A stretch of 5,674 bases of DNA from a virus: positions 1 through 5,674 of IMG/VR virus record IMGVR_UViG_3300045988_037143; one strand, 5' to 3'. Made by a program: the position numbers and the translations under genes. The notes under the pieces were generated by a model, which was not told where the DNA came from, ran no database searches, and saw only the letters and a list, made by a program, of their open reading frames with translations. Below, piece by piece: positions 1 through 5,674 of the stretch. Every line of letters starts with the position of its first letter. Positions within the stretch are counted from its first letter, which is position 1.

Positions 1-77
1 CGTTGTTGCTTATCTGGTTATATACACCCTGAGTGATTGCCGCCATGGTGTTATAGCCCATTTGTTCGAACATGCTT
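1..77. repeat. Terminal redundancy: 1-77 is identical to 5598-5674. This is an assembly overlap of a circular genome (unit length 5597 nt).
   Basis: Base-by-base comparison of the first 77 nt (cgttgttgcttatctgg...gaacatgctt) with 5598-5674 shows identity. The VP2 reading frame stays open and in frame across the junction. Confidence 0.9.
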
Positions 78-346
78 TTGCGGTTAAACTTCTGCTGGCT
101 TTGCATATTGCTTTGAATTGCCCCTAGCATACTGTTCCAGTCTTGTAGGTTTTGTTCTCGGTTTACGCCGCTGGCGGCGCTGCTGTAGCCTCCTCCCTGG
201 CTTGAGCTTTCGTTGTGCTGTTGGCTGCCTCCGTTGCTCTCCATCAGATTCCCGCCTAGGAATTTGTTTATGAGTCCTCCGGCGATTGTTGGGAGTAGTT
301 GTTTGCCGATTCCGAGCAGTGCGCTGCCGATTGCTGCTAACGCCAT
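1..346 (-). CDS. VP2: VP2 minor capsid / DNA pilot protein, N-terminal part. The complete CDS is 5098..5674 joined to 78..346 on the circle, 281 aa.
   Basis: The minus-strand ATG at 346-344 gives MALAAIGSALLGIGKQLLPTIAGGLINKFLGGNLMESNGGSQQHNESSSQGGGYSSAASGVNREQNLQDWNSMLGAIQSNMQSQQKFNRKS with no stop. It joins in frame to MFEQMGYNTMAAITQ..., the 190-aa ORF at the other end of the window. The joined length is 846 nt (282 codons). The hydrophobic N-terminus and Gly/Ser-rich middle are typical of microvirus pilot proteins. It sits immediately 3' of VP1, as in gokushoviruses. Confidence 0.75.
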   Translation of the reverse strand, partial: MALAAIGSALLGIGKQLLPTIAGGLINKFLGGNLMESNGGSQQHNESSSQGGGYSSAASGVNREQNLQDWNSMLGAIQSNMQSQQKFNRKSMFEQMGYNTMAAITQGVYNQISNN

Positions 347-354
347 AATAAAAT

Positions 355-377
355 AGCCCGGGGTTTTGCCCCGGGCT
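355..377 (-). terminator. Stem-loop between the VP1 stop and the VP2 start. A 9-bp GC-rich stem (355-363 / 369-377, a355:t377 then 8 G:C pairs) with a 5-nt loop, followed on the minus strand by ATTTTATT. Terminator-like or an mRNA/ssDNA structural element.
   Basis: Read directly: minus strand AGCCCGGGG-CAAAA-CCCCGGGCT-ATTTTATT-ATG(VP2). A purine tract AGGAAAGGGGGAAG lies immediately 5' of the stem on the minus strand. Confidence 0.5.
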
Positions 378-391
378 TCCCCCTTTCCTGT

Positions 392-2032
392 TTAATGATG
401 GTCGTCGAGCCCTGGAATGCTGTACATGGGCATAGGTCTCACGCTGGTGTTGTCAATGACCGTATCCATGATGAACTGCGGTTCGTCGTCCACCGCCAAG
501 GTTCGCTGGATTTCGGAGTCTCCTTCTTTCATCCATGCCTGGCTTAAGCTCGGCGTTTCCGTGTAGTTGTCTCCGTAGTGCCAACTGTCCAGCGTTCCGG
601 TCGCGTTGCTCCGGAATTTTCCGCTGATTCTGTTTGGCTTCATGCGGTATTCTGCCCATGCTTCTTGGTACCCAAATGCCTGTTCATCTGTGTCCGTTCC
701 GGTAAGGTACAGCTCCTTTTTGAGAATTGCTTGCTCTCCCAGATTTGCGAAGACCGGGTAATAGAAATCCAGATTGGTTTTTCGACTCCACATCCGCTCG
801 AGTCCCTGCTGATAGGTATGGTCATGCCGGATGCAGCATACTCCGATAACATAGCCGTGTTCCTCAAAGCTTTTTGTGAACATACTGCCGTTGTACGGCG
901 TAACGCTCACGGCTGCGGTGTTGCCCTGCGGACTTTCCGTAGTTGTGCCGCTGGTCTGGATGACCTGACTCATGTTGATGGTGATACGTGTACCGCCCAG
1001 ATACTCAGGAATTTGTACCGTCTTATCGCTGATTTTGGTGTTGAACAGCGAATAAATCATCTCGCGGTAACGGCTGCCTCCGCGTGCCAGCTGTTCGTAG
1101 TATTTTTGAACTTGAAATGCTTGTCTCAGCTGATTGACGGTTGCGGATGTTACGTTGTCCATTCTTGCGCCTAAGTAGATTTCTTTCTGGGTGGGTGTGT
1201 ATCCTACAACGCCTAAAGGTTTGGTTTGGTTTTCGATTTTTGCCAGCGCTCCGGTGGTGCTTAACTCTGTTCGTTTGATGTCTGAATATCCGAATATTGG
1301 AGCGTTTCCTTCCAGTGGAAGTTGTACTTCAGGGCCTTTCTGCGGACTCGGTAAAGCCGACGTGAAATAGTCGTGGTACTTGTTGACCGGAAGAGGTCTG
1401 CCGCCTGTGTATGCGTTCTGGAGAATATACTCCAAGTCCGGTTTTGCCGCGTCCATGCCCTTTGTTTCGTCGTCCGTATAGTTTACGGTTGCGTCTGTCG
1501 TGCTGTTGATGGCCGGATTGTCAACGTTCTGGTCTCTAAACCACTCCTGCCATATCATAGCGTACGCCCTCATGGGCAACGCGTTGATAGTGAATGCCGT
1601 ATCTTCTCCTTTGCTTACCTTGGTCGGAATACCCATGTAGTCAAGGATGCTTCCTTCATAAGGCGCGGGCTTATCTTTCGTTCCGACGACTCTTACTTGT
1701 GGGATGTAGTAGTTATTTGTTTGCGTCCAAGGTCCTTCATCGTTCTCGCCCATGAATCTCTTGAAGTTATCCCAGATGATTCGACAAGGTACGTTGAAAT
1801 AGTAGATGTCCATATGACAGTTATCCATAACCGGGAAGATAGGAGTTGTCATACGTATAATAGCGGCTTGGTCGACGCTGAACGTGTCTCCCGGTAACAC
1901 CTCGTCCACATAAAATGGGATGAGCTGTCCTGCATTGAGCGTCAGTTTGACATCTTGCCGCCGCTTGAATCGGCTTCGCGTAATGTCCAAGCGCGGGACT
2001 TGGTTAAATCCTGCGTTTTTGTTTCTGTTCAT
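392..2032 (-). CDS. VP1: Major capsid protein VP1 (546 aa), Microviridae / gokushovirus-like
   Basis: A 546-aa ORF. Its N-terminus (MNRNKNAGFNQVPRLDITRSRF...NAGQLIPFYVDEVLPGDTF...PIFPVMDNCHMDIYYFNVPCRIIWDNFKRFMGE) follows the conserved gokushovirus VP1 pattern. Its size fits Gokushovirinae VP1 (about 530-570 aa). SD GGAGG lies 7 nt upstream of the ATG, which overlaps the upstream gene stop (ATGA). Confidence 0.95.
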   Translation of the reverse strand: MNRNKNAGFNQVPRLDITRSRFKRRQDVKLTLNAGQLIPFYVDEVLPGDTFSVDQAAIIRMTTPIFPVMDNCHMDIYYFNVPCRIIWDNFKRFMGENDEGPWTQTNNYYIPQVRVVGTKDKPAPYEGSILDYMGIPTKVSKGEDTAFTINALPMRAYAMIWQEWFRDQNVDNPAINSTTDATVNYTDDETKGMDAAKPDLEYILQNAYTGGRPLPVNKYHDYFTSALPSPQKGPEVQLPLEGNAPIFGYSDIKRTELSTTGALAKIENQTKPLGVVGYTPTQKEIYLGARMDNVTSATVNQLRQAFQVQKYYEQLARGGSRYREMIYSLFNTKISDKTVQIPEYLGGTRITINMSQVIQTSGTTTESPQGNTAAVSVTPYNGSMFTKSFEEHGYVIGVCCIRHDHTYQQGLERMWSRKTNLDFYYPVFANLGEQAILKKELYLTGTDTDEQAFGYQEAWAEYRMKPNRISGKFRSNATGTLDSWHYGDNYTETPSLSQAWMKEGDSEIQRTLAVDDEPQFIMDTVIDNTSVRPMPMYSIPGLDDHH

Positions 2033-2505
2033 TCAGTCGCCTCCGTTTTCGGTTCCTCGGGTTTTTCTTCCTGATAGATTCCCAGATTTTTTGCCCACTC
2101 GACCGTTCCAAACGATGCAATAAATTTGTCGACATCGTTGTCAAATTTGAGCTTTATTTCTTTCGGCACCTCGTCCCAGATTTGCTCTGCTCGCATCATG
2201 ATGTTCTGGAGTTCGGCCAGATTCTGCGGCGCTTCGGTAAAGTCTTGGATGCCGCCCCCGATGTCTGGCTTGATGCGTGCTGCAATGTCTGGGTCGATGC
2301 TTGCCCGCCTGATGATGTTTTCCAGTTTGGTTTCTTCGAGATAGCTGTCTATCTCGGCTTGCTGGTCAATGGTTTGGTCGAGTCTCAGCACCTTTTCGCC
2401 TTTTTTATTGCGCTCCCAGAGGTACGTGCGCCTTACGCTTTCCCCGGCCTCGGTCGGCTTTGCTGTGGCGGTCTGCCGCCAGTTACTTACTGAGCGATAC
2501 GCCAT
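2029..2505 (-). CDS. Acidic 158-aa protein immediately upstream of VP1 and translationally coupled to it. Candidate internal scaffolding protein (VP3-like).
   Basis: The track ORF 2029..2532 begins with TTG. The likely true start is the ATG at 2505-2503, preceded by AAGGAG. The stop TGA overlaps the VP1 ATG (ATGA). The protein is acidic and Glu/Asp-rich, as scaffold proteins are. It has no recognisable enzymatic motifs. The assignment rests on position and composition only. Confidence 0.45.
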   Translation of the reverse strand: MAYRSVSNWRQTATAKPTEAGESVRRTYLWERNKKGEKVLRLDQTIDQQAEIDSYLEETKLENIIRRASIDPDIAARIKPDIGGGIQDFTEAPQNLAELQNIMMRAEQIWDEVPKEIKLKFDNDVDKFIASFGTVEWAKNLGIYQEEKPEEPKTEATE

Positions 2506-2725
2506 CGTAAATGTTCTCCTTTTCGTTCTCAAACAGGCCTGTTTTCTCGTCGAATTTTGCCAGGCGCACTAGCCGATAGTCGCTCGGCGTCTTACTCATC
2601 ATGTTGCGTTCATCGGTCAGCGCAATCTTAAAGTTGCGCTCTGCTACCTTGTCTTCTCGTTCCGTAAAGATAGTGATGTAGCCCATCACACACTGGTCAT
2701 AGATGCCGTATACGTTGTTGCTCAT
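2483..2725 (-). CDS. Hypothetical small protein (80 aa)
   Basis: Starts at the internal ATG at 2725-2723, preceded by GGGGGAAAAACAA. The 129-aa track ORF extends it upstream from a TTG through a low-complexity His-rich stretch built from CAT repeats, which is unlikely to be real. It overlaps the VP3-like start by 23 nt. No recognisable motifs. Confidence 0.45.
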   Translation of the reverse strand: MSNNVYGIYDQCVMGYITIFTEREDKVAERNFKIALTDERNMMSKTPSDYRLVRLAKFDEKTGLFENEKENIYDGVSLSK

Positions 2726-2829
2726 TTGTTTTTCCCCCAGTTTTTGATGATGTCGGTGCCCATTGCGATGAGCGCAAAGCTTGCGCTGCACATTGCGATG
2801 ATGCTGGCGATGACTCCTACCCATATCAT
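2722..2829 (-). CDS. 35-aa single-pass membrane peptide (MIWVGVIASIIAMCSASFALIAMGTDIIKNWGKNK). Candidate small membrane or lysis-type protein.
   Basis: Translated by hand from the minus strand. ATG at 2829-2827. The TGA stop overlaps the ATG of the downstream 80-aa ORF (ATGA coupling). There are 26 hydrophobic residues, then the charged tail KNWGKNK. An alternative in-frame GTG at 2838 has GAGGGGG 9 nt upstream (38 aa). It is absent from the ORF track because it is under 60 aa. Confidence 0.4.
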   Translation of the reverse strand: MIWVGVIASIIAMCSASFALIAMGTDIIKNWGKNK

Positions 2830-2937
2830 GATGTTCACAGTCTGATACCCCCTCGCATTGCGCCGCTCCCAAGGTTGATGGCCTTGGTTTTTCGTGCGGT
2901 CTTGTTGTAAATTTTTGCGTCCTTGGATTTGCGGACT

Positions 2938-3159
2938 TTACTCCTCTTTCCCATGGTTGATTTCCCTTCTGAGTATTTCTACCTCAATTTCTGTCGCTTT
3001 TGCTTTTTTTCGGAAGACCATGTCAAGGTAAAACTTTGCGTCGTCGTACTTTGCGGCCTGTCGTAGCAGTTTGTAAGCGGCGTCGATTTCCTTGTAGGTT
3101 CGCGTCAATTTCTCCATGAGTTTCGTGTCGGTCTGGTCTCTTACGTTCCATGTTTTCAC
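2938..3159 (-). CDS. Hypothetical small charged helical protein (73 aa)
   Basis: GTG start at 3159, preceded by GAGGAG with a 7-nt spacer. The protein is Lys/Glu-rich. No recognisable motifs. Confidence 0.45.
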   Translation of the reverse strand: MKTWNVRDQTDTKLMEKLTRTYKEIDAAYKLLRQAAKYDDAKFYLDMVFRKKAKATEIEVEILRREINHGKEE

Positions 3160-3163
3160 TTGG

Positions 3164-3310
3164 TTACTCCTCGGGCTTGTTTCCCTCTACTGCATGATAA
3201 ATCTTGTCCAGCATAGCCAAGATTTTGCGGATGTTGTTAAACAGCGCGTCGATTTCCTTGATAGACAGAGCGGACACCTTCTTTCTTAAGTTATTTTGTA
3301 TAAATGGCAT
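3164..3310 (-). CDS. Possible 48-aa ORF (MPFIQNNLRKKVSALSIKEIDALFNNIRKILAMLDKIYHAVEGNKPEE)
   Basis: Hand-translated. Its stop TAA lies within the GAGGAGTAA RBS of the 73-aa gene. It has no clear SD, and its ATG sits inside a candidate -10 element. The call is weak. Confidence 0.25.
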   Translation of the reverse strand: MPFIQNNLRKKVSALSIKEIDALFNNIRKILAMLDKIYHAVEGNKPEE

Positions 3311-3336
3311 TGTAAAACAGCACTTTCCGCTGTCTA
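3309..3336 (-). promoter_or_regulatory. Candidate secondary sigma70-like promoter just downstream of the terminator (minus strand TAGACA-16 nt-TACAAT)
   Basis: Minus strand TAGACA (complement of 3331-3336), a 16-nt spacer, then TACAAT (complement of 3309-3314). This is a 5/6 + 5/6 match to consensus. It could re-initiate transcription of the downstream genes after the strong terminator. Confidence 0.3.
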
Positions 3337-3352
3337 ACTATTTATGTTGTAT

Positions 3353-3390
3353 CAAAAAAAACAGGGCTTGTCAAGCCCTGTTTTAAAATT
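3353..3390 (-). terminator. Rho-independent terminator. Perfect palindrome ACAGGGCTTG-T-CAAGCCCTGT flanked by A8 and T-rich tracts. Bidirectional, but strongest for the minus strand (stem followed by T8).
   Basis: Plus strand: CAAAAAAAA-CAGGGCTTGTCAAGCCCTG-TTTTAAAATT. Minus strand: ...AGAGAAAAATAA-TTTTAAAA-CAGGGCTTGACAAGCCCTG-TTTTTTTTGAT. It sits immediately after the stop of the 58-aa ORF. Confidence 0.7.
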
Positions 3391-3565
3391 ATTTTTCTCT
3401 TCTGTTTAGTTCGTCTTTTGCTAGCGCGTGGATGTATTCACAACGGTAGCTTATGTCATTACATGGGCATTTTTCGCAATCTCTGTTGCAGTGCTTGAAT
3501 TTGTAGTCCATCCATCTCAAGGCCTCTGTGTCAAGGTCTTTGTACGTTGCTCTTAAAGTTTTCAT
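3389..3565 (-). CDS. 58-aa Cys-rich small protein (MKTLRATYKDLDTEALRWMDYKFKHCNRDCEKCPCNDISYRCEYIHALAKDELNRREK). Possible zinc-binding small protein.
   Basis: Hand-translated. ATG at 3565-3563, preceded by AGGGGAT with a 7-nt spacer, 20 nt downstream of a consensus promoter. The TAA stop abuts the terminator. The Cys/His cluster H25-C26-x3-C30-x2-C33-x-C35-x6-C42-x3-H46 resembles a zinc ribbon or knuckle. It is absent from the track because it is under 60 aa. Confidence 0.55.
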   Translation of the reverse strand: MKTLRATYKDLDTEALRWMDYKFKHCNRDCEKCPCNDISYRCEYIHALAKDELNRREK

Positions 3566-3591
3566 AGTCTTTATCCCCTTTCTTTAATTGG

Positions 3592-3620
3592 ATTATACCA
3601 CAACTTTGCTTATTTGTCAA
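3592..3620 (-). promoter_or_regulatory. Perfect consensus sigma70 promoter on the minus strand: TTGACA - 17 nt - (TGg)TATAAT with an upstream A/T-rich UP-like tract
   Basis: The reverse complement of 3591-3640 is AACTTTTTTTCAAAAACCTC-TTGACA-AATAAGCAAAGTTGTGG-TATAAT-C. Both hexamers match 6/6 and the spacer is 17 nt. The extended -10 TGn is present. The predicted TSS is near 3585, giving a 20-nt leader with an SD for the 58-aa ORF. Confidence 0.7.
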
Positions 3621-3661
3621 GAGGTTTTTGAAAAAAAGTTTAGATGTGCTATGCCTTGAAG

Positions 3662-3701
3662 GTCATGCGGTAGGCGCGGTGCGCCGTACGGAGAGCATGA
3701 C
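3662..3701. other. GC-rich nested stem-loop in the intergenic region. Outer stem GTCATGC (3662-3668) pairs with GCATGAC (3695-3701). Inner stem GTAGGCGC (3670-3677) pairs with GCGCC-(G bulge)-TAC (3681-3689), loop GGT.
   Basis: Inverted repeats read directly from the sequence. This is the only GC-rich island in an otherwise AT-rich non-coding region. Confidence 0.4.
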
Positions 3702-3743
3702 GAGACCTTCCGGTTTCGCTCGTCGGACGGCCTTTAATTCGAT

Positions 3744-3948
3744 TTTTCCACACTTTCAACATTTTCAACAGGTTTTCCACGAAAAGTTGCACAAATGGTT
3801 TTGTGCATATTGCTACACTTTCAACAATTCAACAAGTTATCCACAAAAGTATCAACATCAAAATAATCCAGAAAATATCGTTCCAAGGATAAAAATTCAT
3901 GGTATTCAACATTTCAACACTCCCTACTATTACGACTACAACAAGTTA
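3744..3948. repeat. Iteron-like array. There are six perfect TTCAACA heptamers in three closely spaced direct-repeat pairs: 3755/3764, 3820/3828 and 3905/3913. Flanking repeats are CACTTTCAACA (twice), TTTTCCAC (twice) and CAACAAGTTA (twice).
   Basis: Counted directly in the AT-rich intergenic region. Pair spacing is 8-9 nt, and the pairs are 65 and 85 nt apart. There is no minus-strand ORF here. The plus-strand 129-aa ORF across it is low-complexity. Confidence 0.5.
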
Positions 3949-3968
3949 ATAATAAATAATAATAATAT
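3949..3968. repeat. (AAT)n / AT-only tract (aataataaataataataata) immediately 5' of the GC hairpin
   Basis: Read directly. A 100% A/T 20-mer. Confidence 0.6.
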
Positions 3969-4008
3969 CATGCGCGTGCGTGCGCGATTACGTGCGCGCG
4001 CGTGCATG
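3969..4008. repeat. 40-nt alternating pyrimidine-purine (CG/TG) element. It forms an 18-bp hairpin (catgcgcgtgcgtgcgcg - atta - cgtgcgcgcgcgtgcatg) with 14 Watson-Crick pairs and 4 G:T pairs. It has potential to form Z-DNA or an ssDNA hairpin.
   Basis: Each arm alternates Py-Pu perfectly for 18 and 18+ nt. Arm pairing was checked position by position. It is embedded in 100% AT flanks. Confidence 0.6.
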
Positions 4009-4027
4009 TCAATATGAAATAAAATAC

Positions 4028-4063
4028 TCAGCCAAGTAACATACTTGATAGTTACTTGGCTGA
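4028..4063 (-). terminator. Perfect 13-bp inverted repeat (TCAGCCAAGTAAC / GTTACTTGGCTGA) with a 10-nt loop. On the minus strand it is followed by TATTTTATTT. Probable terminator downstream of VP4. The plus-strand loop is ATACTTGATA.
   Basis: The reverse complement of 4028-4040 equals 4051-4063 exactly. A second small hairpin TGACAC-caaa-GTGTCA (4065-4080) overlaps the VP4 stop codon. Confidence 0.6.
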
Positions 4064-4077
4064 GTGACACCAAAGTG

Positions 4078-5097
4078 TCAAAATACACCTTTGGCTTTGC
4101 TCATCTTTTTGGACATGGATGCTTCCTTGTCCTTTAGCTGCTCTGCGTATGACTTATCTGTTTCCGCGTTTCTTTCGATTAGGGACGCAATGGCTTTTTC
4201 CTGCCGATACTGTTTGATTCTCCACGCTTTTTCAGGGTTCTCCGCTTCCAGTTTTCGCCAGTAGTATTCCGGTATGGCTGCTCTCTTGCCGTTGGTAAGC
4301 TGTATGTATCCCTGCTGCCAGAGTCTCTCTTGATGGTCTCGGAACCATTGGTCTCCGAGTCCCGGCTTTCGGCTCATTGTGCAAAATGGTGGTATTAAAC
4401 CCATTTTTTGGAAACGCTTTTTGTCGTTGCCGTACAGCTTTTTAGTTACGTACCCTGCAACATAATTATATGTTTGTGGTACTGCTTGTGCGATGTCAAC
4501 TGTACCCTGCCCCCAGATTTTGACTAGCTTATCACTTGTGTAGTGACCGTGTCTTGATAGCTTATGGATTGGCTTTAAGTCGTCTGGGTGCCATCCGTAC
4601 AGTATCATGTGATAGTGTGGTCTCGCTGTGTTGTCTCCATACTCTCCGGCTAAAAAGTATCTCAGAGGCTCTTTGATGGCCTTTCTTAGCCTTTTAATAA
4701 AGAGCTGGGTATCCTCCACGCTCAATGTTTGCGTCGTTCTCGGACGCTCTGAGGTGCCTTTCCAGATATTTATGCCGCCTTTGTAGATTTCGCCTGTTTC
4801 TGTGTCTTGTGTTGGTACATGGTCATCGTCGTACGTTAGCGTGATAAACCAGACACTTTCTTTGTCGTATCCGTATGCTTCTAGCTCCATCCGCGTCGCC
4901 CAGTCTTTGCGTTTGCGCAGTCTGCACCCGGTACATTGTCCACATGGTATCAACATTACATCTTTGCGGTACATTAAATTTTCGTACGTCATTTTGGTCT
5001 TGTGTATCTCGTTAAAAGAGGCGAGTGAGTACACTCGCCCACTCGCCTCTCTGTCGTGAGGTACATAAAACCGAATTAACGGTTTATTGCATCCCAT
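4078..5097 (-). CDS. VP4: Replication initiation protein VP4 (339 aa), an HUH rolling-circle endonuclease
   Basis: The N-terminus MGCNKPLIRFYVP has the M-x-C-x-x-P-L form common in gokushovirus VP4. The CGQCTGC zinc-binding cluster is present. Motif I is FITLTY (residues 84-89). Motif II is HYH (residues 161-163, nt 4609-4617, verified). Motif III is YVAGYVTKK (residues 212-220, nt 4438-4464, verified), near-identical to phiX174 A protein YVAKYVNKK with its two catalytic Tyr. The ATG directly abuts the VP2 stop (TAAATG). Confidence 0.93.
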   Translation of the reverse strand: MGCNKPLIRFYVPHDREASGRVYSLASFNEIHKTKMTYENLMYRKDVMLIPCGQCTGCRLRKRKDWATRMELEAYGYDKESVWFITLTYDDDHVPTQDTETGEIYKGGINIWKGTSERPRTTQTLSVEDTQLFIKRLRKAIKEPLRYFLAGEYGDNTARPHYHMILYGWHPDDLKPIHKLSRHGHYTSDKLVKIWGQGTVDIAQAVPQTYNYVAGYVTKKLYGNDKKRFQKMGLIPPFCTMSRKPGLGDQWFRDHQERLWQQGYIQLTNGKRAAIPEYYWRKLEAENPEKAWRIKQYRQEKAIASLIERNAETDKSYAEQLKDKEASMSKKMSKAKGVF

Positions 5098-5674
5098 TTA
5101 TTTAAGTTTCCCTTTCCAATATTCGATGTTTTTGCTCCCGATGAAGTCTCTTCCCGGTTTGTAGTTGAGCTCATCTTTGGTCGGTTGTCTCCCTGCACCG
5201 CCGACGCCACTGTTTAGGTTGCTGAGGTCGTTGAAGACGTCCTTGAATGCATTAAACGCTTTGTCTGCGCTTGTGTGTGACCAGCTTGTAGCGTCTCCAA
5301 CCGCTTGTGCTGCGTTGTACCAGTTACTTTTGCTTTTGCTCCATGTGTTGTTGTGGTTCTGGCTTACTCCGAGTGCGCTTGCGGTCGCTGCACTGCTGCT
5401 TGCGAGGCCCATACTTGCCCCGCTGATAGTTCCCTGACTGCCGCCCGGTGTGCTTGCTCCGCCCTGTTGGTATGCTAAGATAGGGTTAATGCCTGCTTTT
5501 CGCATATCTTCCACGGCTCGCTGATAAGCTGTATTGCTCATTTGTTCTTGCCAAGCTCTGTTTTTGGCTGCTTCTGCGCTGTTGTAGGACATCGCCGCGT
5601 TGTTGCTTATCTGGTTATATACACCCTGAGTGATTGCCGCCATGGTGTTATAGCCCATTTGTTCGAACATGCTT
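5098..5674 (-). CDS. VP2: VP2 minor capsid / pilot protein, C-terminal part. Continues upstream across the circular junction to the ATG at 346.
   Basis: The 190-aa track ORF (MFEQMGYNTMAAITQGVYNQ...GGASTPGGSQGTISGASMGLASSSAATASALG...) is open to the window edge and in frame with 78..346. It has a Gly/Ser/Ala-rich low-complexity core typical of VP2. Its TAA is adjacent to the VP4 ATG. Confidence 0.85.
   Translation of the reverse strand, partial: SMFEQMGYNTMAAITQGVYNQISNNAAMSYNSAEAAKNRAWQEQMSNTAYQRAVEDMRKAGINPILAYQQGGASTPGGSQGTISGASMGLASSSAATASALGVSQNHNNTWSKSKSNWYNAAQAVGDATSWSHTSADKAFNAFKDVFNDLSNLNSGVGGAGRQPTKDELNYKPGRDFIGSKNIEYWKGKLK
5598..5674. repeat. Second copy of the terminal redundancy (identical to 1-77)
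   Basis: See the 1-77 feature. Confidence 0.9.

Follow-up and report, generated by a model that had tools for sequence, protein, structure and literature searches.

The stretch of DNA analysed here (the window, 5,674 nt) covers positions 1 to 5,674 of IMG/VR virus record IMGVR_UViG_3300045988_037143. With a probability of roughly 0.85, the window represents a complete, 5,597-nt gokushovirus genome (Microviridae, Gokushovirinae) that belongs to the well-sampled WZ-2015a/PV067914 cluster of the mammalian gut. All family-supported open reading frames (ORFs) lie on the window minus strand (the coding strand), in line with the original prediction that every real gene is on one strand. Protein family calls were made by Pfam and PHROG profile searches. 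The genes and features of the window are as follows (aa, amino acids):

4078..5097, minus strand: VP4, rolling-circle replication initiator, 339 aa (PF23343, E=2.2e-17; phrog_942, E=1.9e-112)
4077..3621, minus strand: non-coding block between VP4 and promoter P1
3592..3620, minus strand: predicted promoter P1 (sigma70 consensus 12/12, plus extended -10 TG)
3389..3565, minus strand: gene of the 58-aa Cys4 miniprotein, the accessory cassette gene, with AAAGGGGA as ribosome-binding site
3358..3384, minus strand: predicted intrinsic terminator (hairpin and T8), the right border of the accessory slot
3164..3310, minus strand: o48, a conserved small helical protein
2938..3159, minus strand: o73, a conserved, charged, helical protein of 73 aa
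2835..2954, minus strand: VP8/ORF8, J-like basic protein, 39 aa (phrog_10695)
2722..2838, minus strand: o38tm, a hydrophobic 38-aa peptide with a coding signature in its own frame
2483..2725, minus strand: VP5, 80 aa (PF20577, E=2.5e-18; phrog_1670; annotated as 80 aa in KT264788)
2029..2532, minus strand: VP3, internal scaffold (PF09675, E=3.1e-21; phrog_1642; start codon uncertain)
392..2032, minus strand: VP1, major capsid protein, 546 aa (PF02305, E=6.2e-145 over the full profile; phrog_514, E=1.7e-207)
355..377, minus strand: GC-rich hairpin and T-run in the VP1/VP2 gap, a likely attenuating terminator
78..346, minus strand: VP2, DNA pilot protein, N-terminal part (continues through the junction)
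5098..5674, minus strand: VP2, C-terminal part (phrog_8742, E=1.3e-79; 5598-5674 equals 1-77)
1..77, no strand: terminal overlap, equal to 5598-5674, marking a circular 5,597-nt genome

Read along the coding strand, the order is thus VP4, [non-coding block, accessory slot, o48, o73], VP8, (o38tm), VP5, VP3, VP1, VP2. The original prediction had given VP3-like, VP1, VP2, VP4, ~0.5 kb of non-coding DNA and a cluster of small ORFs; the order stands, while VP5 and VP8 were hidden among the small ORFs. The predicted VP1 length of 546 aa (2032..392) was confirmed, and the gap between VP1 and VP2 is only 45 nt. The VP4 translation contains an HUH-type motif ('HYHMILY') and a tyrosine motif ('YVAGYVTKK'), and shares 99% aa identity with its counterpart in PV067914. 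Taken together, the window has the traits of the Gokushovirinae: an F-type capsid protein (VP1), a Chlamy_scaf protein (VP3), a Phage_ORF5 protein (VP5), an HUH replication initiator (Rep; VP4) and a pilot protein (VP2). No Bullavirinae-type external scaffold (D) or major spike (G) protein was found among the nine coding-strand ORFs by Pfam or PHROGs.

Genome form and placement

The two ends of the window (1-77 and 5598-5674) are 100% identical at a spacing of 5,597 nt, giving the 5,597-nt circle that had been predicted from the 77-nt overlap. In the circularised sequence, VP2 is a protein of 281 aa encoded across the junction (346..1, then 5597..5098); the original ORF list held only its final 190 aa, and the phrog_8742 profile match starts at position 100 for this truncated ORF. 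Over its entire length, the restored protein is 92.5% identical to the VP2 of PV067914, which provides independent evidence that the two ends are contiguous. An exact overlap and a full-length VP2 across the junction bear out the earlier call of a complete circular microvirus genome. Among the IMG/VR relatives, terminal overlaps of 55, 77, 99, 119, 127 and 141 nt are seen, and these lengths, including the 77 nt of the window, are typical assembler k-mer sizes. We therefore infer that the overlap is an assembly signature of a circle, rather than a biological terminal redundancy. Circularity is read here from the overlap and from the VP2 read-through.

The window was compared with GenBank phages found by megablast and with 80 fetched of 223 IMG/VR VP4 relatives, amounting to ~90 genomes in total. 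These carry working labels (e.g., L040; L310 is the Chlamydia phage Chp2 and L311 the Bdellovibrio phage phiMH2K, both isolated gokushoviruses). The near clade consists of 65 aligned genomes, while the sister and far clades are those in which VP4 is ~44-57% identical. By megablast, the window matches (i) PV067914.1 (Gokushovirinae sp., human, 5,583 nt) at 90.2% identity over 89% of its length, (ii) MG945657 (human faeces) at 82% over 92%, (iii) KT264788-90, deposited as 'Gokushovirus WZ-2015a' (human and monkey, 5,548-5,895 nt), at 86-89%, and (iv) several pig-faeces genomes. The best whole-genome match is IMGVR_UViG_3300045988_018446 (91.3% over 97.2%). The 80 fetched IMG/VR loci are mostly 5.2-6.0 kb long, and they share the gene order of the window with all 10 GenBank relatives, which are annotated VP1-VP2-VP4-gap-VP5-VP3. 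All near-clade genomes read VP4-[interval]-VP8-VP5-VP3-VP1-VP2.

The WZ-2015a-type relatives (KT264788-KT264790, PV067914.1, MG945657/MG945780/MG945381 and UViG_3300045988_018446; 5.3-5.9 kb) match the window in which genes they have and how these are ordered, in the conserved non-coding block and in where the slot lies, with identities of 86-99% for VP4, 76-94% for VP1, ~90% for VP3 and 92-100% for VP8. They differ in that their genome identity to the window is at most 91%, their VP2 and slot content are different, and most carry other cassette families or none. At these levels of identity, a placement outside the WZ-2015a-like group appears very unlikely. The nearest relative changes from gene to gene (VP4, 99% to PV067914; VP1, 94% to L040; VP2, 96% to L045; VP5, 99% to L043), which makes the genome a recombinant mosaic of cluster members. 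Among close relatives, mosaicism is much stronger in VP2 than elsewhere: VP2 is 45-66% identical (in partial alignments) where VP4 is 93-97% identical, and recalls the hypervariable pilot-protein regions reported for microviruses. Two IMG/VR relatives, L071 (10.9-kb contig) and L086 (8.8-kb contig), are about 1.5-2 times the unit length; these may be concatemeric assemblies or large insertions.

Two other explanations of the window were weighed against this placement. It is extremely improbable that the contig is a chimera or not truly circular, with the cassette region mis-joined: although the overlap equals an assembler k-mer size, VP2 is restored at full length across the junction, terminal overlaps occur in 44 of 89 relatives with the same size and order, and an identical promoter/Cys4/terminator context is present in the independent contigs L021, L040, L043 and L066. 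Equally improbable is the suggestion, made by the original prediction, of a divergent and previously undescribed microvirus lineage with a non-canonical layout. The window is indeed ~0.8-1.1 kb larger than Chp2 (4,563 nt), phiMH2K (4,594 nt) and SpV4 (4,421 nt), its gene order is unlike that of Chp2, and its nearest genome, at 91%, falls under the 95% species-type threshold, so it may be a distinct species-level genome. However, GenBank relatives of the same order and size, some ~90% identical, have existed since 2015, the name 'Gokushovirus WZ-2015a' (deposited in that year) occurs in 16 papers, and IMG/VR holds the 223 VP4 relatives. The order VP4-VP5-VP3-VP1-VP2 was published for human-gut gokushovirus assemblies in 2012 (Roux et al. 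2012, PMC3394797), and for enterogokushoviruses, as VP4-VP5-VP3-VP1-VP2-VP8, in 2020 (Kirchberger & Ochman 2020, PMC7062461); in Family 3, all six orders of the conserved genes occur (Kirchberger et al. 2022, PMC9239249). The supposedly canonical VP1-VP2-VP3-VP4-VP5 is only the order of the Chlamydia phages, and phiMH2K differs again. As for size, microvirus genomes have a median of 5,078 nt and reach 8.3 kb (PMC9239249); the ~1.1 kb by which the window exceeds the Chlamydia and Bdellovibrio phages is common to the whole cluster. By its own account, the original prediction would fall if the genome belonged to a well-sampled group of gokushoviruses with this gene order; in substance, that is the placement found.

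The conserved block downstream of VP4

The extra ~1.1 kb is made up of three parts: (i) the conserved block, (ii) a slot flanked by promoter and terminator, and (iii) conserved small genes. This supports the predicted composition of the extra DNA (a regulatory or non-coding region plus a promoter/Cys-rich gene/terminator cassette). In GenBank relatives, 917-1,395 nt separate the VP4 stop from the VP8 start, and this interval is unannotated except for one 'hypothetical protein' in MG945381. The block is strongly conserved from 4077 to ~3745, and more weakly to 3621. Most of its columns are >90% conserved in the 65 near-clade genomes, whose VP1 proteins are 72-94% identical. Parts of the block are detected by blastn, at 72-86% identity, even in clades with 44-57% VP4 and 48-56% VP1 identity, in which coding DNA, unlike the block, is mostly unalignable. 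Folded as single-stranded DNA (ssDNA), the whole block is more stable than its shuffles (z = -2.68). The multi-clade alignment reveals a fixed architecture of elements, listed here in coding-strand order:

4026..4065, minus strand: hairpin after VP4, with a covarying stem of 13-15 bp, an invariant GTGTCA before it and an invariant 5' loop TATCAAG
3971..4004, minus strand: alternating C-purine tract, runs of 14 and 16 nt around TAAT
3925..3970, minus strand: A/T run (23 nt of pure A/T) followed by the invariant motif TAACTTGTTGTAG, with AACTTG at 3942-3947
3745..3919, minus strand: iteron array of six TGTTGAA in three tandem pairs, with TGTGGA(T/A)AA variants
3833-3838, minus strand: second AACTTG, within the iteron array
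3807..3788, minus strand: small hairpin TGCACAAA/TTTGTGCA, within the iteron array
3650..3744, minus strand: GC-rich structured segment (GTCATGC...GGCGC-ACC-GCGCC...GCATGAC), moderately conserved, upstream of the promoter

The stem of the hairpin covaries. It occurs as CTCAGCC/GGCTGAG, CTCGGCC/GGCCGAG and CTCCGCC/GGCGGAG, with further variants CCAAGT, CCCAGT, CCTAGT and CCTAAT. Across 28 distinct sequences, 90.4% of cells are paired (20-44% in slid controls), 7 of the 13 pairs have changed on both sides, and 53 cells are compensatory, as compared with 15.8 in shuffles (0/500). A T-run 3' of the hairpin is confined to the near clade, which argues that the hairpin is not merely the terminator of VP4. 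In the C-purine tract, the alternation is kept while the sequence itself varies; runs of 12 nt or more are present in 85 of 90 genomes, but in only 9 of 500 shuffles (1.8%). Such a tract may be prone to form Z-DNA or an imperfect hairpin.

The motif TAACTTGTTGTAG is found in ~60 further microvirus genomes, with VP4 identities between 97% and 43%, and every one of them has it on the coding strand at a distance of 70-650 nt downstream of VP4. AACTTG itself has only two copies on the coding strand of the window, both inside the block. The six TGTTGAA copies compare with 1.04 expected genome-wide, and far clades carry more. The iteron region is >90% conserved in the 65 genomes and retains 80-86% nucleotide identity where VP4 identity has fallen to 57%. 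The nested stems of the GC-rich segment are invariant and hence yield no covariation data; the segment is a possible complementary-strand origin or regulatory element.

Several other candidates in and around the block were discarded. A plus-strand ORF of 129 aa (3628..4017) is intact in only 2 of 65 relatives and is devoid of a codon-position signal, and is therefore not a gene; a 37-aa ORF (3762..3649) is likewise intact in 2 of 65. Apparent DnaA boxes at 3837-3845 (TTATCCACA) and 3744-3752 (TTTTCCACA), part of three matches where 0.5 are expected, are not conserved, and are taken as iteron variants because distant clades read GTTGAAAAC at these positions. No Rfam family matches the block; the sub-threshold hit to tpke11 (3954-4028, plus strand; 25 bits against a gathering score of 43, E=0.036) falls on the C-purine/AT tract and is almost certainly a chance match due to composition. 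In microviruses with 35-40% VP4 identity (L206, L210, L221, L225, L247, L254, L258, L260, L261, L269 and others), the 18-nt motif TAACTTGTTGTAGNNGTA occurs on the opposite strand inside VP4, at a fixed offset of ~870 nt, and was set aside as a coincidence of coding for Y-x-Y-N-K-L.

The accessory slot and the small conserved genes

Promoter P1 reads TTGACA, 17 nt, TG-n-TATAAT. Its left flank (CAAAAACCTC-TTGAC) is common to all genomes, while the spacer and the -10 element travel with the type of cassette. Homology to close relatives continues through P1 and stops at ~3578, just before the start of the Cys4 ORF (in some relatives earlier, at ~3660 or 3744). It picks up again precisely at 3384, where the terminator hairpin lies, or at 3338. 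The terminator is a 12-bp hairpin that contains TTGACA, followed by T8 and then by a -10-like hexamer. Almost all genomes show this right border: a TTGACA hairpin, a T-run, and TATACT or TATAAC ~17 nt downstream. The border may thus be a terminator that doubles as a downstream promoter (P2) by re-creating a -35 box.

Between these borders, the slot is empty, holds a remnant, or carries one or two genes; at least six families of miniproteins, unrelated to each other, are represented. A seed-based classification of the 65 near-clade genomes gave the following contents:

Family C: 15 genomes
Family A (Cys4): 10 genomes
Family B: 10 genomes
None: 10 genomes
Family D: 6 genomes
B+E: 3 genomes
A+D: 3 genomes
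Remnants: 4 genomes
Other combinations: 4 genomes

Truly empty slots (L012, L015, L036, L063) consist of a single hybrid sequence, ...CCTC-TTGACA-AACCCTC-TTTTTT..., while others keep the 3' remains of an ORF of family B or C. Clades in which VP4 is 44-57% identical likewise contain families A, D and E. PV067914 does not carry the Cys4 gene, even though its VP4 is 99% identical to that of the window, and so cassette type is uncoupled from the backbone. The GC content of the cassette is 0.37-0.39, against ~0.48 for the genome. In the sister clade (VP4 ~57%; L070-L090), a Peptidase_M15_3 gene (E=5e-23) sits at the same position behind an equivalent promoter, in some cases together with a D or E cassette or with a 77-aa ORF from yet another family.

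Morons of tailed phages (the Hendrix/Juhala concept) are promoter-gene-terminator units inserted between conserved genes. At the sequence level, the cassette has the corresponding features: a promoter and terminator of its own, presence/absence or replacement among relatives, and an atypical GC content. Structurally, it is a moron-like unit in a fixed slot. It differs from the morons of tailed phages in its setting (a 5.6-kb ssDNA phage with no evidence of lysogeny), in occupying a single fixed slot directly downstream of a control region, and in that its terminator doubles as the next -35 box. No description of a 'moron' slot in Microviridae was found in the searched literature. Small (~65 aa) accessory peptides are known to link some microviruses, which are regarded as having very limited accessory repertoires (Kirchberger et al. 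2022, PMC9239249).

The Cys4 gene occupies the slot in 13 of the 65 near-clade genomes (family A in 10, A+D in three), in addition to one full copy in L043 and a partial copy in L004, and is absent from 8 of 9 GenBank relatives. In 5.8 billion proteins, the family forms 34 clusters, with contigs of at most 6.5 kb wherever contig data are on record; it thus appears to be microvirus-only. Four cysteines (C26, C30, C33, C42) are invariant, as CX3CX2CX8C, and AlphaFold2 predicts three helices (predicted local distance difference test score, pLDDT, of 83). The protein would therefore be a helical miniprotein that probably binds zinc. No significant match was obtained in Pfam, PHROG or PADLOC, Foldseek against the Protein Data Bank (PDB) gave only E > 3, and an exhaustive profile search of 1.84 billion representatives returned only family members and spurious Cys-repeat matches. 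As the gene is the first behind the strongest promoter, dispensable and exchangeable, we suggest with low confidence that it encodes an early host-takeover, anti-defence or exclusion factor.

Downstream of the slot, the interval 3311-3357 (minus strand), from the terminator/P2 to o48, contains AATAGTTAGACAGCGGAAAGTGCTGT, kept in all relatives, and a small hairpin (ACAGC..GCTGT); this element may be a 5'-UTR (untranslated region) structure or an operator. The next gene, o48, has a conserved core of ~37 aa and probably starts at a GTG at 3277; its far-clade homologue is 40 aa long ('MALISIKDVKQAIR..'). The o73 frame is intact in 55 of 58 relatives (variability at the three codon positions 10.5/7.6/16.4) and persists in far clades at 45-55% identity. 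The VP8 frame is intact in 65 of 65 relatives, and its variability is strongly biased towards third positions (1.6/1.2/7.6). VP8 is found in 135 microvirus records, several of them annotated 'DNA binding protein', and its C-terminal MRGGIRL is common to phiMH2K p10 ('similar to phiX174 J') and Chp2 ORF8. By these resemblances, the 39-aa basic protein is gokushovirus ORF8/VP8, a predicted J-like DNA-binding protein.

The ORF list gave 'VP5' as a single ORF of 129 aa. This was rejected in favour of two genes, o38tm (38 aa) and then an 80-aa VP5 (4.9/4.1/19.5), because the N-terminal codon-position signal sits in the o38tm frame. The GTG start of o38tm overlaps the VP8 stop (GTGA), and its stop overlaps the VP5 start (ATGA); these junctions suggest translational coupling with both neighbours. 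Only part of the cluster has o38tm, in which it is intact in 11 of 11 genomes. It is a hydrophobic single-helix ORF between VP8 and VP5, in a near clade that does not have the M15 peptidase of the sister clade. Since the near clade is without this slot peptidase, o38tm could be a membrane or lysis-type peptide.

Readings of the VP4-VP8 interval

The architecture of the block suggests that it is probably a replication origin or control region. Parallels in phiX174, phiMH2K and Chp2 lead to this reading, and to a candidate nick at or near TAACTTG^TTGTAG (^, nick). In the phiX174 record, the viral-strand origin is at A4306, directly after CAACTTG. The intergenic hairpin loops of Chp2 (TCTACTTGATC) and phiMH2K (GGACCCTACTTGTTGTAA, which contains CTACTTGTTGTAAG) both include ACTTG(T/A)T, and the latter shares ACTTGTTGTA with the invariant motif of the window (hairpins compared: window 4026-4065, minus strand; Chp2 ~2912-2949; phiMH2K ~3297-3334). 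In the resulting model, the ~0.33-0.45 kb after VP4 would act in cis in replication and control. If phiX174, cut at CAACTTG^A, is taken as a guide, the HUH Rep VP4 would nick the viral strand at, or close to, the invariant TAACTTG^TTGTAG. The adjacent A/T run and Z-prone C-purine tract may make the supercoiled replicative form easier to melt, proteins would bind to the TGTTGAA iterons, and the covarying hairpin and GC-rich stems could be ssDNA signals (for packaging, termination or the priming of the complementary strand). The first gene(s), which sit in the replaceable slot, would then be driven by the near-consensus sigma70 promoter found where the block ends, and the closing terminator would re-create a -35 box for the genes downstream. 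The searched literature held nothing relevant on a mapped gokushovirus origin. Our proposal that the VP4-VP8 interval combines a composite origin (hairpin, C-purine tract, A/T run with ACTTG, iterons) with an accessory-gene exchange site set into the main promoter of the phage, where miniprotein genes change places even among distant gokushoviruses, both undescribed in the searched literature, is tentative, and we place it at somewhat below even odds.

A number of points weigh against the overall reading. The placement in the WZ-2015a/PV067914 cluster relies on identity levels and shared synteny. No prophage was found by VP1 in 185,579 reference genomes. The promoter, terminator, origin and nick site are assigned by consensus or comparison only. 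Across both strands of the genome, AACTTG occurs 3 times where 3.3 are expected, which is no enrichment, and its weight lies in its invariance and position only; compared with a phiX174-type origin, the coding-strand core AACTTG does not vary, conservation is missing from the remainder of the 30-mer, and just 6 nt are shared. A second candidate nick motif, TACTTGATA, is present on the non-coding strand, as the reverse complement of TATCAAGTA, the invariant loop of the hairpin. This motif has the phiX174 (CAACTTG^ATA) and Chp2-loop form, and is a better match than the coding-strand motif. Two candidate origin motifs thus lie on opposite strands. Lastly, the searches with the Cys4 protein gave neither homology nor a matching fold, which makes its function a guess.

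The second motif raises the matter of polarity: with ACTTGATA in the hairpin loop on the non-coding strand and a T-poor coding strand, the clade might package the antisense strand. At four-fold sites of VP1, the coding strand is T-poor (0.14) and A-rich (0.32), whereas T reaches 0.51 in Chp2 and 0.65 in SpV4. We rejected strand composition as proof of reversed polarity, because phiMH2K is similarly A-rich (A 0.46) and yet has a coding-strand motif. The T-poverty may stem from polarity, from mutational asymmetry or from the codon usage of the host.

Conservation of the block could also have other origins. One is an encoded product: a hydrophobic 27-aa ORF (MLNTMNFYPWNDIFWIILMLILLWITC, 3829-3912, minus strand), which may be what is selected instead of, or besides, a role in cis. 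This ORF stays open in 46 of the 65 genomes aligned (among distinct sequences, in 35 of 47), has slightly higher variability at the third position (1.2/1.5/2.9), and is preceded by a Shine-Dalgarno (SD)-like GGGAG 7 nt upstream of its ATG. We consider it unlikely as the explanation, given that the frame is broken in ~25-30% of relatives, overlaps the iterons, accounts for at most 84 of ~330 conserved nucleotides, and has ORF-free flanks that are equally conserved; L006, L009 and the far-clade genomes also diverge from the near clade across this stretch. Another possibility is that the block is mainly a lysogeny module, with a dif-like XerCD site in the style of the enterogokushoviruses, and not so much an origin. 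Strong mosaicism is seen in VP2 among the relatives, a trait that a 2021 study in PNAS is said to link to temperate microviruses. The enterogokushovirus dif, moreover, is located in non-coding DNA that separates VP4 from the 3' end of the VP2-VP8 block (PMC7062461). Set against this are the absence of an E. coli dif match at up to 3 mismatches (a weak test, because the host, and hence its dif sequence, is not identified), the lack of any VP1-related prophage in 185,579 reference genomes, and the fact that the sole microvirus among the genome motif matches is a 5.7-kb binned contig; a lysogeny module is accordingly quite improbable, and an origin or control region remains our preferred reading of the block.

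The search for a host returned little. A VP1 scan of the 185,579 reference genomes found no related prophage, and motif matches in genomes (112, against an estimated ~280 expected) were at chance level, with the exception of one binned microvirus contig. This contig, L157 (5,739 nt, in the metagenome-assembled genome (MAG) of Bacteroides sp. CAG:545), is a distant microvirus with a VP1 that is 42% identical; it is a small circular phage contig contaminating the MAG bin, and not host evidence. SD-like motifs precede most genes and the promoter is of sigma70 consensus, weakly suggesting a host with SD-dependent translation and sigma70-type promoters.

Comparison with known systems places the window among familiar gokushoviruses with an enlarged VP4-VP8 interval. 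The gut gokushoviruses of Roux 2012 and Enterogokushovirus are alike in the order VP4-VP5-VP3-VP1-VP2, in a small DNA-binding VP8 and in a non-coding region beside VP4. Enterogokushovirus differs in size (4.3-4.7 kb), in having VP8 after VP2, and in its dif motif and prophages; in the window, VP8 precedes VP5, no E. coli dif or prophage was found, and there is ~1.1 kb extra between VP4 and VP8. Chp2 and phiMH2K have homologous VP1, VP2, VP3, VP4, VP5 and ORF8/J-like proteins (C-terminal MRGGIR[LF]), but are smaller (4.56-4.59 kb), have other gene orders, and are without iteron array, C-purine tract and cassette slot; Chp2 is also T-rich at four-fold sites, where the window is T-poor. The phiX174 origin (CAACTTG^ATATTAATAAC, nicked by protein A) resembles the candidate of the window in having AACTTG on the viral-sense strand beside an A/T-rich stretch, and in being served by an HUH, two-tyrosine Rep. 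It lies inside gene A, while the candidate of the window is in a non-coding block downstream of rep, flanked by iterons and hairpins. The cassette shares with the morons of tailed phages its autonomous-looking form, its presence/absence and replacement polymorphism, and its lower GC content.

The genome itself adds little, being one more member, at most 91% identical to its nearest relative, of a cluster that is abundant in human, monkey and pig viromes. The block and the slot go beyond the public annotation, have modest follow-up value, and apply to the whole cluster rather than to the window alone. If the block is an origin, it would supply gokushovirus research with a model of nick site and iterons that can be put to the test. 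If the slot does serve for exchange, it would offer a catalogue of early proteins of 55-70 aa for anti-defence and exclusion screening, and microviruses would be less closed to the flux of accessory genes than their size suggests.

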